From Mobula birostris (lineage: Eukaryota): a stretch of DNA of 64,000 bases. The stretch spans positions 44,132,137-44,196,136 of the forward strand of contig NC_092402.1 of assembly GCF_030028105.1 (NCBI RefSeq), read 5' to 3'. The first letter of the stretch is position 1, and each line of letters begins with the position of its first letter. A program made the translations under genes and the position numbers. The notes beneath the pieces were generated by a model that worked only from the letters and a program-made list of their open reading frames with translations, did no database searches and was not told where the DNA came from. This document shows, in pieces, positions 4,933 through 63,128 of the stretch.

Positions 4933-5121
<189 letters not shown>

Positions 5122-7179: not shown

Positions 7180-8330
7180 TACCCATCTTGATAAACAGGA
7201 CAGCACTGTGAGGACCATGTTTTTTGATTTCTCAAGTGCCTTCAATACCATACAGCCCTCATTGCTGGAAAAAAGCTCCATTCAATGCAGGTTGGCACTT
7301 CCATTGAGTCCTGGATAATGGAGTACCTGACTGGCAGACCACAGTTTGTGCGGCTTCAGAGCTGTGTGTCAGACATGGCTATAAGCAGCACTGGGGCCCC
7401 ACAGGGGACTGTATTGGCTCCCTTCCTGTTTACACTGCATACCTCAGACTTTAGATACAACAATGAGTCATGTCATCTGCAGAAATTCTCTGATGACTTG
7501 GCAATCGTTGGGTGTATAAAGGGAGGATGGGAGGATGAATACAGAGCCCTGGTGGAGGACTTTGTCAAATGGTGCAAGCTGAATTGCCTGCAGCTCAACA
7601 GTAAATCAAAGGAGATAGTGATGGACTTTAGGAAGATTAACCCCGCACTGCTCCCTATTACTATTGATGGTGAGGATGTGGATGTGATGAGGACCTACAA
7701 GTACCTGGGGATGCACCTGGATGACAGACTTGAGTGAAGCATCAATACAGAGGCCGTGTACAAGAAGGGCCAGAGTCACCTCTACTTCCTGAGGAGACTG
7801 AGGTTCTTTGGAGTAAACAGGCCTCTCCTTCACATGTTCTACCAGTCTGTCGTCACCAGTACAATCTTCTATGCTGTGGTGTGCTGGGGCAATGGCATCA
7901 ACACAGGTGATGCCAACAGGCTCAATAAACTGATTAGAAAGGCTGGCTCTGTTATAGGAGTCAAAATGGACACGCTGGAGGCTGTGATAGAACAAAGGAC
8001 ACTGCAGAAAATCCTGGCAATTCTGGACAATGTTTCTCACCCTCTGCATGCCATCTTGGCTGAACAGAGGAGCACTTTTACTAATAGTCTAAGACAACTG
8101 CACTGCTCCAAAGAGCGTTACATGATGTCATTCTTACCTTCGACCATTAGGCTCTCTAATGAGTCAACCTATAGCTGGGGAAGTGATGACTCTCTCCTGT
8201 TAGACTGTTTGAGGTAACTTATTTTTTATTCTTTCTTACTTCTCTTCTAATATTTGTATATCTGTGCACTTGTAATGCTACTGTGACAGAGTAATTTCCT
8301 TTGGAATCGATAAAGTACCTATCCATCTAT
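7180..8330 (+). mobile_element. Rex1/Babar-clade LINE, 5'-truncated (RT pseudogene)
   Basis: DFSSAFNTIQP, GAPQGTVLAPFLFTL, KFSDD, YKYLG and LYFLRRLR, with an (ATCT)n-like tail. Related copies at 11994-12290 (-) and 62553-63128 (+). Confidence 0.9.
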
Positions 8331-10725: not shown

Positions 10726-11651
10726 TTGTAATTGAATCTATACTTTGGAAATAGCCTTTCAGATCTTTTGAAATGGAAATGGATAAACTGCATGGGTATA
10801 TCATTTTTCAAAAATTGCCAGTTAGCTCCTGGTTTCTGATGTTGGCGCCTGGGAATAATTGATACAGACCAGTATGTTAAAATCCACATTATTGGCTTCT
10901 GTAAGCAGAGAACTCAATTGAATGGTGATCATTCAAAAACATGACACTGGTCAACCTGTTACCTAGTCCAATCCTGGACCGTGGCTACTGTGGGAACTTA
11001 ATTCAGTAAAAGACCAATGTGATCCAACTTTCTGGCAAGTGTTGGGCTTAGCAGCTGCTTCACTGTAAACTTTTAGTCAAGTTTCTTGACAACTTGTTGA
11101 ATGCTGCATGTCTAATTAATTATACAATGTTTTCGACTTGCAAAAACACTGAAAGTGTGAACAAATATCTGCTGCAAGGCCCTTATTGACAAACCTTGAC
11201 TAACATGATAGCATTTTGTTTTCCCATTAGAAAAGCCACAAATGAACTACTGAGTTTGGAACCTTGATTGGAAAGAAGGGCTTTCTACCTCCCTCCTGAT
11301 TCTGATGGCTATATGGGTTTTGGTGTATCTCTACTGACATAACACTAAAAATCTAGGCTGAATATCTGGGGTAACATTGAGGGAATTCTGTAATGTTGGA
11401 TTCTGCAAGGCTGCAATATGAATGGTTAAAAACTGACAATACTCAGCAGGTCTGGCAGCGTCTGTGGAGAGAGATGCAATATTATGCTTTAGGTTGATGA
11501 CCTTTAATTAGAACTGGTGAAAGGTTCTGATGATTAACATTCCAATGAATGGTATATGTGACTTGAAATGCTAGTTCTATTTCTTTCTCCACAGATGTTG
11601 CAATATCTGCTGAATACTTCCAGCATTGAGTGCGATTCAGGATCAGCCATA

Positions 11652-11861
11652 AGGGTAAAGACGGTAAATACCCTTCCCTAACAACTGTGTATTTCTATAG
11701 AAAAGCAAAAACCTGCAGAGGAAGAGAGCTTAAAATAAAAGCAGGTAAGACCATATGTCTGGTCTTACCTGCTTTTATTTTAAGCTCTCTTCCTCTGCAG
11801 GTTTTTGCTTTTCTATAGAAATACACAGTTGTTAGGGAAGGGTATTTACCGTCTTTACCCT
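11652..11861. repeat. Perfect palindrome: two 102-bp arms and a 6-bp spacer (possible MITE)
   Basis: 11652-11753 is the exact reverse complement of 11760-11861 (checked base by base). The spacer is tatgtc. Confidence 0.97.
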
Positions 11862-11993
11862 GACTTGTTTATGTATGTGATTTTTGGTCTAGGTCAATGC
11901 CTCTGACTCTCAAATACTCTCGAGATAATCTAGCAAGCCATGTAAATTGACGAGAGCTGGGCCATAAAATGCTGGCCTTCCTAACACTACAGG

Positions 11994-12290
11994 TAGATAG
12001 ATAGATACCTTATTGATCCCAAAGAAAATTACAGTGTCACAGTAGCATTACAGGTGAACAGATACACTAATGTACAAATATTAGAAGAGAAGTAAGAAAG
12101 AATAAAAAAAAAGTTACCTCTAAAAGACTAACAGGAGGGAGCCATCACTTCCCTGGCTATAGGTTGACTCATTATAGAGCCTGATGGCCAAGGGTAAGAA
12201 TGACCTCATATCACGCTCTTTGGAATAGCGCAGTTGTCTTAGTCTATTACTAAAAGTGATCCTCTGTTGAGCTAAGGTGGCATGCATAGG
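11994..12290 (-). mobile_element. Rex1-type LINE 3' end (same family as 7180-8330)
   Basis: Reverse complement of 8050-8330, including the (GATA)n tail. Confidence 0.85.
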
Positions 12291-13219: not shown

Positions 13220-13381
<162 letters not shown>

Positions 13382-22045: not shown

Positions 22046-22985
22046 TGCTCAGTAGCCACTTCATTAGGTATCTCCTTTGTCTAATAAACTGGCCAGAGTG
22101 TATGCTTGTGGTCTTCTGATGCTCTAGCCCACCCACTTCAAAGTTTGACATGTTGTGCATTCAGAGATGCTCCTGCACACCACTATTGTAATCTGTGGTT
22201 ATTTGAGTGTGGCTATCCTCCTCTGACCCCTCTCATTAACAAGGCGTTTTCACCCACAGAACTGCTGCTCACTGGATGATTTTTGTTGTTCACACCACAC
22301 CCTGTAAACACTAGAGATTGTTGTGTGTGAAAATCCCAGGAGATCAGCAGTTTCTGAGATACTCAAACCACCCCATCTGACACCAACAATAACTCGACAG
22401 TCAAAGTCAATTAGATCACAATTTCTCTCCATTTTGATGCTTGGTCTGGACAACAACTGAACCTCCTGACCATGTCTGCATGCTTTTATGCATTGAGTTG
22501 CTGTCACATGATTGGCTGCTTAGATATTTCAAAGTCAAAGTCAAAGTAAAATTTATTATCAGAGTACATACATGTCACTGCTTGCAACCCTAAGATTCTT
22601 TTTCTGTGGGCACACTTGGCAAATCTATAGAACTGGTAACTGTAAACAGGATCAATGACCAAACAACTGTGCAAATGCAGATATAAATAAATAGCAATAA
22701 ATAACAAGCATGAAATTAACAAGATAAGAGTCCTTAAATGAGTGTAGGTATCCCCTTTTGCTCAAGAGCCTGATGATTGAGGGATTGTAACTGTTCTTGA
22801 ACCTGTTATTGTGAGCTCTTGTACCTTTTACCTGATGGCAGGAGCAAGAAGAGAGCATGGCCTGGGTGGTGAGGATCTTTGATAATGGATGCTGCTTTTC
22901 TACGCCAGTGTTTCATGTAGCTGCGCTCAATTGTTGCATTAATGAGTGGGTGTACAGGTGTACCTAATAAAGTGGCCACTGAGTA
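22046..22985 (-). mobile_element. Non-autonomous Tc1-like DNA transposon, interrupted by a Rex-type fragment (about 22529-22935)
   Basis: TIR 'ctcagtggccactttattaggtac'. ORF 22250-22507 is a transposase HTH remnant (DLIDFD...GLSISETADLLGFS). Confidence 0.85.
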
Positions 22986-29688: not shown

Positions 29689-29841
29689 CAGTCGACCTCC
29701 ACTAATCCGACTACCTGTAATCCGGTTCCTTTGATAATCCGGCACTGATTATGCTTAATGTGATCCTTCTGTAATTCGGCATTTTCACTAATCCGGCACT
29801 CCTCAGGTCCCAGTGGTGCCGGATTAGTGAAGGTCGATCTG
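29689..29841. mobile_element. Tigger/pogo-type MITE (153 bp)
   Basis: TA on both flanks, TIRs CAGTCGACCTCCACTAATCCG / CGGATTAGTGAAGGTCGATCTG, and repeated internal taatccgg motifs. Confidence 0.85.
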
Positions 29842-30279
29842 TATTTGGACTGACCTGCCTGAGTCCTATTGCCATTGGTACCATACTGCCAGGCTGTGGA
29901 AGGCCAGTGGTATTGGGTCTTCTCTCTGGACTAGGGGAGCGTGGCAGTCATGAACCACATGCAGCAGTACTGGGTAGGGACACTGGGTTAGCACCATCTG
30001 GTTTAGTGCTTTGCAACAGGGTCTTAGACCATAAGACATAAGAGCAAATTAGGCCATTCAGCCCATCAAGTCTGTTCTGCCTTTCAAACATGGCTGATTT
30101 ATTATTCCTCTCAACCCCACTCTCCTGCCTTCTCCCCGTAATCTTTTACGTCCTTACTAATCACAAATCTATTATCTCCACTTTAAATATATCCAGTAAC
30201 TTGTCTTCCACAGCTGTCTGTGGCAATGAATTCCTCAGATTCACCACCTTCTTGCTATCTTTGTCTGTTTGACTCAGTG

Positions 30280-33008
30280 GTACAAGTTTTACATTGATCT
30301 GCACAACCTCGTACGGAACGCCCCTGCAGACGACAAGGTCTTCACCCTTGGCGACTTCAATGCCAGAGTAGGCCAGGGTTCAGAAGCCTGGAAAGGAGTA
30401 CTTGGCAAACATGGTGTTGGAAACTGCAACGATAACGGGCGCCTTCTGTTAGAGTTTTGCACGGAGCAGCATCTCACCATCACTAACATCATTTTCCAGC
30501 AGAAAGACAGTCTGAAGACAACCCAGATGCATCCTCGGTCCAAGCATTGGCACCTCACAGACTACATCTTGGTGCGCCAGAGAGACCTTTGGGACGCCTT
30601 ACTCACCCAAGTGATACCCAGCGCAGAGTGTCATACGGACCATCGTCTTGTCCGCTGCAAACTCAGTCTTCATTTCAAACCCAAGCCAAAGACAGGAGGT
30701 GCTCCAAGGAAGAAGTTTCAGGTTGGCAACCTCCAGTCAGCTGAATTGAAAGCTGACCTTCAGACGAATCTTCAGTCGAGGCTTCAGGATCTCAGTTTCC
30801 CCACAGACTCCTCTCCAGAAGTGCTTTGGGAACACCTAAAAACCACCATCCTGTAAACCTCTGAAGTCCTAGGGTTTTCCACAAAGGAAAACAAGGACTG
30901 GTTCGATGAAAACAACCAGGAGATCCAAGGATTGCTGGCGAAGAGGAGATCCGCCCACCAGGCGCACCTTGCTCAGCCATCTTGTCCTGATTAGAAATCA
31001 GCCTTCCGCCTTGTATGCAGCAACCTCCAGCGCAAGTTTTGAGAGATTCAGAACGTGTGGTGGACCAACCTCGCAAAGAGAACTCAGCTTTGCGCAGACA
31101 CCGGTGACTATAGAGGGTTTTATGAAGCTCTGAGAGCGGTGTATGGCCCTTCGCACCAGGTCCAGAGTCCATTGCGTAGTGCAGACAGTCAGGTGCTCTT
31201 CACAGACGAGGCGTCCATCCCGAACCGGTGGTCAGAACATTTCCAGACTCCCTTCAGCGCCAACTGCATGGTCCAAGACTCAGCAATTCATCGTACCCCA
31301 CAACAGCCAGAGAAAACAGAACCGGACAAGATTCCAACCCTAGAAGAGACAGTAAAGGCCATAGAGCAACTGAAAAGTGGCAAGGCAGCGGGAGTTGATG
31401 GAATCCCACCTGAGATTTGGAAGCATGGGGGCCCAGCGTTACACATCAAACTCCAGGAGTTCTTTGTTTGCTGCTGGGAACAAGGTAAACGACCACAGGA
31501 CCTCCGTGATGCAGTCATCATCGCCCTGTATAAGAACAAGGGGGAAAAGTCCGACTGCTCCAACTACTGGGGGATAGCTCTTCTCTCTATCACAGGAAAA
31601 ATCCTCGCAAGAGTACTCCTGAACAGACTGGTGCCCATCATTACAGAAGAACACCTCCCAGAGAGCCAGTGTGGCTTCAGAGCCAACAGGAGCACCACCG
31701 ACATGATATTTGTTCTCAGGCAACTCCAAGAGAAACGTAGGGAACAGAACAAAGGATTGTACGTGACATTTGTCGACCTTACCAAAGCGTTCGACACCGT
31801 GAGCAGGGAAGGTCTGTGGCAAATCATGGAACGACTAGGATGCCCCCCAAAGTTCCTCAGCATGGTCATCCAGCTACATGAGGATCAGCGTGGCCAAGTC
31901 AGACACAACAATGACCTCTCAGAACCCTTCCCAATAGGCAACGGAATAAAGCAAGGCTGCGTCCTCGCGCCGACTCTCTTCACCATCTTCTTCAGCATGA
32001 TGCTCGAAAGGGCCATAGAAGACCTTGATGACGAGGACAGTGTCTACATCCAATACCACACTGATGGCAGCCTGTTCAACCTGAGGCGACTACAGTTCCA
32101 CACCAAGACATTGGAGCAACTCATCCGAGAGCTACTCTTCGCCGACGATGCTGCCCTTATTGTCCACACAGAGACAGCCCTGCAGCGTAAAACATCCAGC
32201 TTCGCAGAGGCTGCCGAGCTCTTCGGACTGGAAGTCAGCTTGAAGAAGACAGAAGTTCTTCATCAGCCCGCACCTCAGGAAGATTACCATCCTGTCAGAT
32301 GCCAAGATCGACAAAGAGACTGACAACAGACTGGCAAAGGCAAACAGCGCATTCGGCAGGCTGTACAAAAGAGTCTGGAACAACAAGCATTTGAAGAAAG
32401 GCACAAAGATCAGCGTGTACAGAGCCGTAATACTGACCACCCTCCTGTACGGCTCTGAGTCGTGGGGACTCAACATCCACTGGAGTGACTTCGTCACCAA
32501 CATCGAAGTCCTCAAACAGGCGGAGGTCACCAGCATGGAGGCCATGCTGTTGAAGACACAGCTGCGCTGGGCAGGGCATGTCTCTAGGACGGATGATCAT
32601 CGCCTGCCCAAGATTGTGCTGTATGGCGAACTCTTCACTAGCCACCATGACAGAGGGCACCGAAGAAGAGGTACAAGGACTCTCTGAAGAAATCCCTTGG
32701 TGCTTGTCATATTGACAATCGCCGGTGGTCTAATCTAGCCTCCGATCGTGAGGCCTGGCGACACACCATTCACCAGTCTGTCTCCTCCTTCGAGAACGCA
32801 CGCAGGGTTGGCATTGAGGACAAAAGGAGAAGGAGGAAGAACTGTGACACAGCAACACCAAACCCAGAACAGAATTTCCCTTGCAGCCACTGTGACCGGG
32901 CCTGCCTGTCCTGTATTGGCCTAGTCAGCCACCAGCGAGCCTGCAGCAGATGTGGGCAGCCCCCTTCCTAAACCTTCATTCCCGAAGCCAAGCCATGATG
33001 ATGATGAC
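30280..33008 (+). mobile_element. RTE/BovB-type LINE, 5'-truncated, with an endonuclease-RT pseudogene
   Basis: APE motifs GDFNARVG, NDNGRLLLEFC and TDHRLV. RT ORF 31055-32323 has GKAAGVDGIPPE, FVDLTKAFDTV, GIKQGCVLAPTLF and LFADD. C-terminal QLRWAGHV and a C2H2-like end precede a (TGA)n tail. Stops and deletions are present. Confidence 0.95.
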
Positions 33009-34149: not shown

Positions 34150-34710
34150 TGCACACAGTGGCCACTTTACTAGGTACACCTACTTATTAATGCAAATATC
34201 TAATAAGCCAATCATATGGCAGCAACTCAATGCATAAAAGCATGCAGACATGGTCAAGAGGTTCAGTTGCTGTCCAGACCAAACATCAGAGAGGGAAGAA
34301 ATGTGATCTAAGTGACTTTGACCATGGAAAGATTGTTGGTGTCAGATGGGGTGGTTTGAGTATCTCAGAAACTGCTGATCTCCTGGGATTTTCATGCACA
34401 ACAGTCTTGAGAGTATGCAGAGAATGCTGTGTTAAACGAAAAATATCCAGTGAGTGGCAGTTCTGTGGGTGAAAACGCCTTGTTAATGAGAGAAATCAGA
34501 GGAGAATGGCCAGACTGACTCAAGCTGACAGGAAGGTGACAGTAACTCAAATAACCACGTGTTACAACAGTGGTGTGCAGAAGAGCATCTCTGAATGCAC
34601 AACACATTGACCCTCGAAGTGGATGTACTACAGCAAAAGAAGACCATGAATGTACACTCATTGGCCACTTTAGGTACCTCCTGTACCTAATAAAGTGGCC
34701 AATGAATGTG
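34150..34710 (+). mobile_element. Non-autonomous Tc1-like transposon
   Basis: Same TIRs as 22046-22985. ORF 34230-34472 contains KKCDLSDFDHGKIVG...SISETADLLGFS. Confidence 0.88.
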
Positions 34711-41529: not shown

Positions 41530-42080
41530 CATATTGGCCACTTTATTAGGTACCCCCTATGCCTAATAAAGTGGCCACTGAGTGTATGTTCATGGCTTTT
41601 TGCTACTGTAGACCATCCACTTTAAGATTTGACGTGTTCTGTGTTCAGAGTTGCTTTTCTGCACACCACTGTTGTAACATGTGGTTATCTGAGTTACTGT
41701 CGCCTTCCTGTCAGCTTGAACCAGTCTGGCCATTCTCCTCTGAACTCTCTCATTAACAATACATTTTCACCCATAAAACTGCCGTTCACTGGATGTTTTT
41801 TTGCTTTTCACACCATTCTCTGTAAAATCTAGAGACTGTTGTACATGAAAATCCCAAGAGATCAGCAATTTTTGAGGTACTCAAACCACCCCTGCCTGGC
41901 ACCAACAATCATTCCACGGTCAAAGTCACTTAGACCACATTTCTTCCCCCATTCTGATCTTTGGTCTGAACAACAACTGAACCTCTTGACCATGTCTGCA
42001 TACTTTCATGCATTGAGTTTATGCATTATGGATATGATTGGCTGATTAGATATTTGCATAATAAAGTGGCCACTGAATGT
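41530..42080 (-). mobile_element. Non-autonomous Tc1-like transposon inserted into an old CR1 fragment
   Basis: Same TIRs and transposase remnant as 34150-34710, in reverse orientation. Confidence 0.85.
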
Positions 42081-62552: not shown

Positions 62553-63128
62553 TGTGTACAAGAAGGGCCAGAGTCACCTCTACTTCCTGAGGAGACCGAG
62601 GTCCTTTGGAGTATGCAGGCCTCTCCTTCACATGTTCTGCCAGTCTGTTGTCTCCAGTACAATCTTCTGTGTGGTGGTGTGCTGGGGCAATGGCATCAAC
62701 ACGGGTGATGCCAACAGGCTCAATAAACTGATTAGAAAGGCTGGCTCTGTTATAGGAGTCAAACTGGACACACTGAGGCTGCGGTAGAACAAAGGACTCT
62801 ACAGAAAATCCTGGCAATTCTGGACAATGTTTCTCACCCTCTGCATGACACCCTGGCTGAACAGAGGAGCATCTTTAGTAATAGACTAAGACAACTGTGC
62901 TGCACTAAAGAGCGCGATATGAGGGCATTCTTACCCTCGGCCATTAGGCTCTATAATGAGTCAACCTATAGCTGGGGAAGTGATGGCCCCCTCCTGTTAG
63001 GCTGTTTGAGGTAACTTATTTTTTATTCTTTCTTACTTCTCTTCTAATATTTGTATATTTGTATATCTGTGCACTTGTAATGCTACTATAATTTCCTTTG
63101 GGATCAATAAAGTATCTATCTACCCATC
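62553..63128 (+). mobile_element. Rex1-type LINE 3' fragment (same family as 7180-8330)
   Basis: Highly similar to 7756-8330 (YKKGQSHLYFLRR...). Confidence 0.9.

Follow-up and report, generated by a model that had tools for sequence, protein, structure and literature searches.

A perfect 210-base palindrome in a thyroid hormone receptor intron of Mobula birostris and its probable origin by fold-back synthesis

An intron of a thyroid hormone receptor gene of the ray Mobula birostris holds a perfect palindrome of 210 bases, which is real, occupies a single locus and is represented by only two arm copies in the animal's own reads. The palindrome was probably made when one fold-back synthesis, by template switching or by snap-back, copied the right arm to produce the left. 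It is a member of the long tail of a known kind of template switch, with no evidence of function, and is likely to be near-neutral intron sequence; which of the arms is new, the mechanism that made it and its neutrality are what we infer. The window analysed here is the whole stretch of 64,000 nucleotides at positions 44,132,137 to 44,196,136 of contig NC_092402.1 (assembly GCF_030028105.1), and all positions below are counted from its first letter.

The palindrome and its host intron

The features that define the palindrome and place it within its host gene are as follows.

13250 to 13350, minus strand: first zinc-finger exon of the host gene, 101 nt, matching zf-C4 (E 7e-9)
11760 to 11861, no strand: right arm (arm 2), 102 nt, the probable template and, on the strand of the gene, the first arm to be transcribed
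11754 to 11759, no strand: spacer or hairpin loop, 6 nt, TATGTC, not self-complementary, recovered as a separate spacer contig in run X1
11652 to 11753, no strand: left arm (arm 1), 102 nt, which is probably the derived one; a contig of organism D departs from the window directly after 11652
11651 to 11674, plus strand: mini-hairpin at the outer end of the arm, with a 6-bp stem and an 11-nt loop (mirrored at 11839 to 11861), -3.6 kcal/mol as DNA
4974 to 5121, minus strand: second zinc-finger exon of the host gene, 148 nt, thyroid hormone receptor

The first-pass annotation had placed the palindrome between two zinc-finger exons, and these do belong to a nuclear receptor of the C4 zinc-finger type encoded on the minus strand. 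The best PDB matches of the second exon are to thyroid hormone receptor (E 1.6e-25 and 2.9e-24), with the retinoic acid receptors far behind (E 4e-13), and the host is a thyroid hormone receptor gene. Diagnostic residues suggest that it may be the alpha paralogue. The intron between the two exons is 8,128 nt long and the palindrome lies 1.4 kb into it. A motif search located no exon of the host gene further upstream within the window. A possible exon of 173 nt, with a strong donor (CAG/GTAAGA) and a branch motif, lies at 60574-60402 on the minus strand, and may belong to the host as an upstream exon or be a product of chance.

The geometry proved to be as first described, with the arms pairing at 102 of 102 positions around a 6-bp spacer to give a total of 210 bases. 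The other inverted repeats of the window are decayed: the remaining 24 of the 25 longest pairs are only 70-89% complementary, and among perfect palindromes with a spacer of up to 50 nt the next-longest arm is 16 bp. Searches with blastn (word 7) and nhmmer agree with the earlier reading that the window contains no second copy of the arm, which has a GC content of 38% and is not a simple repeat. When 11620-11900 is folded as RNA the predicted energy is -199.4 kcal/mol (z -30.6), a stability equalled by none of 200 shuffles, while the 210-mer folded as DNA reaches -124.0 kcal/mol with all 102 pairs formed. Stems like that of the mini-hairpin begin at 0.5% of the positions in the window.

Several other elements share the window with the palindrome. 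On its left, and separated from it by 24 nt, is an old element, about 200 nt long, whose inverted ends have decayed (11428-11627), part of a very abundant family common to the organisms designated A, B and D, with hundreds of contigs on its two ends in each of three deep runs. On its right starts a LINE-like piece on the minus strand (11994-12290) with a short tail of GATA repeats, 85-86% alike to 8041-8329 and 62838-63122; the LINE copy at 7228-8217 contains frames that, on reading their translations, resemble reverse transcriptase. A fairly intact LINE at 30230-32687 lies on the plus strand, antisense to the host gene, and its frames of 208, 426 and 147 aa read as endonuclease- and reverse-transcriptase-like. 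Two related small palindromic elements (34658-34705 and 41535-41577) have perfect arms of 15-16 bp and spacers of 11-18 nt, and with one of their arm motifs also present at 22963 they are likely to form a short inverted-repeat family, to which a 48-nt hairpin with perfect 16-bp arms at 29784-29831 is unrelated.

Reads, relatives and age

Copy number rests on the read-derived contigs of four runs, aligned to 10800-11990 at 80% likeness. Run X1 comes from the sequenced animal's own sample, of whose four runs it is the one aligned, and is possibly the source of the assembly. Evidence of this kind shows presence better than absence: the filter drops some records, and copies below 80% likeness are invisible to it.

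In X1 the left junction lies within a contig covering 11443-11681 at a depth of 7.97, the spacer within a contig of 66 nt at a depth of 7.9, and the right junction within a contig that runs from 11832 onward at a depth of 8.4, close to the depth of 8 in the far left flank. The arm is represented by a single contig of 102 nt (11652-11753) at a depth of 15.7. The lengths and ends of these contigs are exactly those predicted for a perfect 102/6/102 palindrome at k=31, and the four of them alone reproduce the depth in all seven bins checked across 11640-11990. Since the junctions are found at the depth of the flank and the arm at double that depth, the junctions exist at flank dosage and the arm exists twice. 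No other contig among the 1,096 from X1 that aligned at 80% likeness falls on the arm, as a paralogue would. For a neighbouring repeat the summed depth in X1 is 12,425, a sign that multi-copy families are visible to this alignment. Words sampled from the region are present at 0.97 in each of the sample's four runs. Reads with one arm only had been named as the sign of an artefact; given the depths of the junctions, the spacer and the arm, that concern is refuted.

Three further organisms were compared at the locus, and none of their contigs shows the ancestral allele. Organism C (run X9) differs at 2 positions in 336 nt, and one of its contigs, at a depth of 2.3, joins 76 nt of arm 2, all identical, to the right flank. 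An unbroken 76 nt fits an allele with a single arm, and the low depth explains the absent left junction equally well. Organism D (run X11) is about 6% diverged (35 substitutions in 571 nt) and gives one contig of 210 nt, at a depth of 4.9, that matches 11468-11652 and then continues with 27 unlike letters. This break at the left edge of the palindrome points to arm 1 as the derived arm. Joints with sides as short as 21 nt are listed for X11, and none from organism D to 11756, 11862 or 11968 is among them; a pure insertion by fold-back predicts that its contig stops at 11651 and continues at 11756, and as the contig stops at 11652, and has no joint to 11756, organism D does not carry a simple pre-event allele, which counts against that form of the event. 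The joint 11652-11862, which would mark an empty site, is absent from the filtered records listed for the four runs. Organism D has no cover at 11653-11990 and none at 11189-11467 either, and in filtered records such holes prove nothing. It also carries an 11-nt insertion at 10964 relative to the window.

Organism B (run X5) is about 98.4% alike, with cover in the filtered records over 10800-11470 only: there is none at 11544, 11640-11759 or 11840-11990, and one short unexplained piece falls near 11790-11820. These holes likewise prove nothing. The share of sampled words found in the four runs of organism B (X5-X8) is 0.20, close to the 0.25 that 11000-11470 alone gives, a hint that organism B may lack 11471-12000, across which no contig joins.

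The perfect arms bound the divergence between them at 2.9% or less (95%) and say nothing tighter, which makes the earlier description of the palindrome as very young too strong. The probability of finding perfect arms would be 0.54 if the event were as old as the split from organism C, 0.19 for the split from organism B and 0.002 for the split from organism D; the last value places the event after the D split unless the arms have been homogenised. Dating in years was dropped, the available rate of 7e-10 per generation being that of another animal, the epaulette shark (PMC10587355); by hand arithmetic it would allow up to about 2e7 generations.

Fold-back synthesis and its alternatives

Two short direct repeats near the palindrome are relevant to how it was made.

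11647 to 11651, plus strand: CCATA at the left junction, repeated directly at 11751 to 11755 (the end of arm 1 and two bases of the spacer), the predicted scar of a fold-back
11961 to 11967, plus strand: GCCATAA, a 7-nt direct repeat of 11646 to 11652, which would bound a 315-nt block at 11653 to 11967

Three origins had been offered on first inspection, and template-switch fold-back is the best supported of them, through the local source of the sequence, the limitation to two arm copies and the repeat at the left junction. In the event that we consider probable, a nascent lower strand would have run leftwards through arm 2 and then the spacer, after which its 3' end would have folded back, paired through a 3-bp stem around a 6-nt loop, and been extended by about 99 nt with its own strand as the template. 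The strand would then have been released, perhaps aided by the mini-hairpin where the tract ends, and synthesis would have resumed on the true template 5 nt behind the point of departure, duplicating CCATA. Such a scar is predicted wherever the return point lies behind the departure point, and all 104 bases that would have been added (11652-11755) have a local source. The chance of a 5-nt repeat like CCATA, which was found post hoc, is 1.4% on one side and about 2.7% on either side. If 11652-11755 is taken as the addition, the pre-event site would have formed a tip with a 3-bp stem and a 6-nt loop at a predicted -0.6 kcal/mol.

Mutations of this form are known. Four-point template switches (Walker et al. 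2021, PMC7954356; Monttinen et al. 2023, PMC10710096) resemble the event proposed here in producing a perfect repeat with a short loop in one step, from a local source and with a net insertion. In the great-ape data reported in PMC7954356 they yield perfect inverted repeats and 65% of them lengthen the sequence, and where point 4 precedes point 1 the result resembles one large insertion accompanied by a direct repeat, as at the left junction here. The difference is one of scale. The reported great-ape tracts have a median of 12 nt and a maximum of 128 nt, so that a tract of about 100 nt lies inside the published range but in its far tail. Intronic hairpins created by template switches are also reported as a possible source of miRNAs, and have stems of 30-55 bp (PMC10710096); the hairpins on the sense strand of introns that serve as raw material for new miRNAs in that work are placed as this one is, while the stem here is 102 bp and its 6-nt loop is shorter than the preferred 10 nt or more. 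Snap-back synthesis-dependent MMEJ (Khodaverdian et al. 2017, PMC5728401), described from break-repair assays in flies, mostly primes on repeats of 3-4 nt less than 10 nt apart, and likewise combines such a short inverted primer with an inverted templated insertion. It differs from the present case, which has no clear microhomology at the return junction, and here snap-back repair and a slip during replication cannot be told apart.

The GCCATAA repeat allows a different account of the locus, which we judge unlikely: that the 315-nt block, comprising the palindrome and 99 unique nt, entered between the two copies of GCCATAA, or that organism D deleted it. On this account the block would be a fragment, captured or retro-copied, that had folded back at its end, and the arms would still be the product of fold-back synthesis. 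A block with these limits predicts the break in organism D exactly after 11652, as observed, and explains why the arm starts at the edge of the block. Against it, a repeat such as GCCATAA, found post hoc, has a chance of 1.3% within the 130 nt to the right of the palindrome and of 3.8% within 340 nt; the joint 11652-11968 is not listed for organism D, although just 23 nt on that side fall within the aligned 10800-11990; and the X1 contigs hold no source copy at 80% likeness. The data cannot choose between the CCATA and GCCATAA repeats, and a fold-back origin of the arms is kept under both. A likeness between 11977-11988 and the arm was also considered and dropped, as 43.5% of random pieces of the window score equally.

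A still less likely account, the arm-homogenised hairpin of the first-pass annotation, is that the palindrome is older and has been kept perfect by repeated template switching or arm conversion, with a deletion at the base of the stem in some relatives. Template switching can maintain stems, according to PMC8794818, and the break in organism D falls at the base of the stem, where a hairpin-promoted deletion is expected to start. Without homogenisation, an age beyond the D split meets the probability of 0.002 given above; no mirrored change has been seen, the 76 nt of organism C being identical, and extra events are needed. Homogenisation is not required to explain the palindrome.

Hardly more can be said for a lone or low-copy palindromic non-autonomous DNA transposon, a PIF/Harbinger-like MITE with GGG...CCC ends inserted at TAA, which we place lower again. 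The palindrome shares with the elements described in PMC4482050 and PMC5172404 a small size, non-coding sequence and inverted ends that start with GGG beside a TAA on the left. Other short elements with inverted ends do occur in the window, and terminal inverted repeats are present, trivially, since the whole element is one inverted repeat. The likeness ends there, for this stem has neither a family nor a true target duplication. The flanking triplets, TAA and TGA, differ as had been noted; PIF/Harbinger elements duplicate TWA (PMC4482050), and TGA is not TWA. The triplets differ while the arms do not, and one change in 3 nt has a probability of 0.02-0.085 at the allowed divergence. A high copy number is given as a mark of MITEs (PMC5172404), and here the depth of the arm fits two copies with no paralogue at 80% in X1. 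The contig of organism D has no joint to 11862, though joints with 21-nt sides are listed for X11. With both the TWA duplication and the many copies failing, the palindrome is not filed as a MITE, and the proposal of a young PIF/Harbinger insertion is set aside.

Searches for an origin elsewhere, which bear also on the inserted 315-nt block, were negative within their scope. Three short patterns gave 0 matches in viral and metagenome contigs and none in plasmids. None of the 7 short frames has a Pfam match at the curated cut-off, one of them having a match below it (DUF5655, E 0.038), and an Atlas search for a coding origin returned no usable match. That the palindrome is an artefact of assembly or of chimeric reads is next to impossible: X1, one of the four runs listed for its sample, may itself have been the source of the assembly, but the junctions and spacer stand at full flank depth with the arm at twice that, the sampled words recur at 0.97 in every run of the sample, and the right junction appears in the unrelated sample from organism C.

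Splice motifs, the RNA duplex and significance

Two features of the arms concern splicing of the host gene.

11712 to 11740, minus strand: strong-looking polypyrimidine acceptor brought onto the sense strand by arm 1, mirrored at 11773 to 11801 (plus)
11769 to 11812, minus strand: candidate 44-nt cryptic cassette exon in arm 2, in the sense of the gene, mirrored at 11701 to 11744 (plus)

The donor GT at 11745 and the acceptor AG ending at 11800 lie where they had been reported, enclosing 56 nt, and are mirrored on the minus strand. The description of a donor and an acceptor on both strands is correct insofar as the motifs are present, but because the palindrome is symmetric these are one donor and one acceptor seen twice rather than four signals. 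The 56-nt unit between them, with its GT-AG ends and polypyrimidine tract, had been called intron-like. Splicing of it is unlikely: both sites are base-paired, with a predicted unpaired probability of 0.001 or less, and the unit is shorter than the 70 nt or so above which canonical introns are reported to dominate in human (PMC5435141). A donor combined with an acceptor on the opposite strand, by consensus patterns, occurs in 0.7% of 20,000 dinucleotide shuffles of the arm, while across the rest of the window 0 of 63,497 overlapping tiles have it. This pattern was chosen post hoc; under a neutral model its rarity must be put down to chance and counts against that model.

The candidate exon combines an acceptor TAG and the donor CAG/GTAAGA with a branch motif placed 20 nt upstream, no AG intervening before the acceptor; read in the frame of the first zinc-finger exon, it would bring in a stop at codon 11. 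Its acceptor test was passed by 3 of 15 strong donors, one of which belongs to a real exon. As a control, the same test was passed by 741 of 6,989 GT sites and by 25 of 224 stricter donors, and a pass rate of 10-11% for any GT weakens the case for a cassette exon. As long as arm 1 is untranscribed, folding predicts unpaired probabilities of 0.68 for the branch point, 0.44 for the acceptor and 0.50 for the donor; once arm 1 is transcribed, all three are predicted at 0.001 or less. The acceptor that arm 1 adds to the sense strand has 15 pyrimidines in 18 positions, and its predicted unpaired probability within the duplex is 0.001. The duplex would thus mask both the candidate exon and the sense acceptor of arm 1.

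These predictions could be extended to a functional reading, in which a single fold-back event silenced a putative poison exon of the thyroid hormone receptor gene and was favoured, altering receptor dosage in one lineage. The antisense copy spans the candidate exon from 49 nt upstream of its acceptor to 9 nt past its donor. We regard this reading as very improbable; if it were true, one step of template switching would be enough to give rise to functional control of splicing, a capacity already reported for miRNA stems (PMC10710096). The closest parallel is with the RNA structures around the poison exons of BRD2 and BRD3 (Petrova et al. 2024, PMC10789245), where intronic complementarity is also placed to affect a stop-bearing cassette exon. 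Those structures are described as conserved and minigene-proven, and flank or loop out the exon, whereas here the candidate exon would itself be fully paired. A thin check of the literature found no paper on an inverted duplication made by template switching that masks a pseudoexon.

Under the near-neutral reading that we prefer, each transcript of the receptor gene would form a perfect RNA duplex of 102 bp, which would bury the splice-like motifs of both arms and be lost together with the intron, and might undergo incidental editing or cleavage. ADAR edits long perfect duplexes, or RNase III enzymes cut them. Editing, the release of small RNAs and masking, all raised in the first-pass annotation, are structurally plausible for the predicted duplex. 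Runs of RNA type from the same species contain next to no sampled words of 11000-12000 and are uninformative either way. Across the 64 kb there are 0 Rfam matches at the gathering score, and all 24 of the weaker matches fall 14 or more bits below their cut-offs, as for any long stem.

In its most likely reading the palindrome matters little, being a rare and long case of a known type of mutation whose sole real distinction is its size. Its interest lies in what it puts to the test. In DNA the palindrome would be a hairpin-prone fragile site, and a transcribed stem of 102 bp at 38% GC offers a natural test of how far animals tolerate a long intronic duplex together with such a site.

Human data give a measure of that size. 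Among the ten longest perfect inverted repeats of the human genome with spacers of up to 8 nt, as tabulated in PMC13155455, two have arms that exceed 102 bp, both at 1-2% GC, and the longest mixed-sequence perfect arms are 95, 88 and 80 bp (Suppl. Table 4). The Mobula palindrome is therefore long for mixed sequence. One of those human entries, 88+4+88 on chrX at 37% GC, is likely to be the 180-bp palindrome at Xq27.1 near SOX3 (PMC6489244, PMC8990796), which is similarly unique, lineage-restricted, of mixed sequence and set among repeats. The Xq27.1 palindrome is reported to be young and a hotspot of breakage, with most other primates having one half of it; chimpanzee has two directly oriented halves, a sign of an inversion step there. 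The palindrome described here differs in being longer, with arms of 102 bp, and in lying inside a transcribed intron; the hotspot behaviour is described for Xq27.1.
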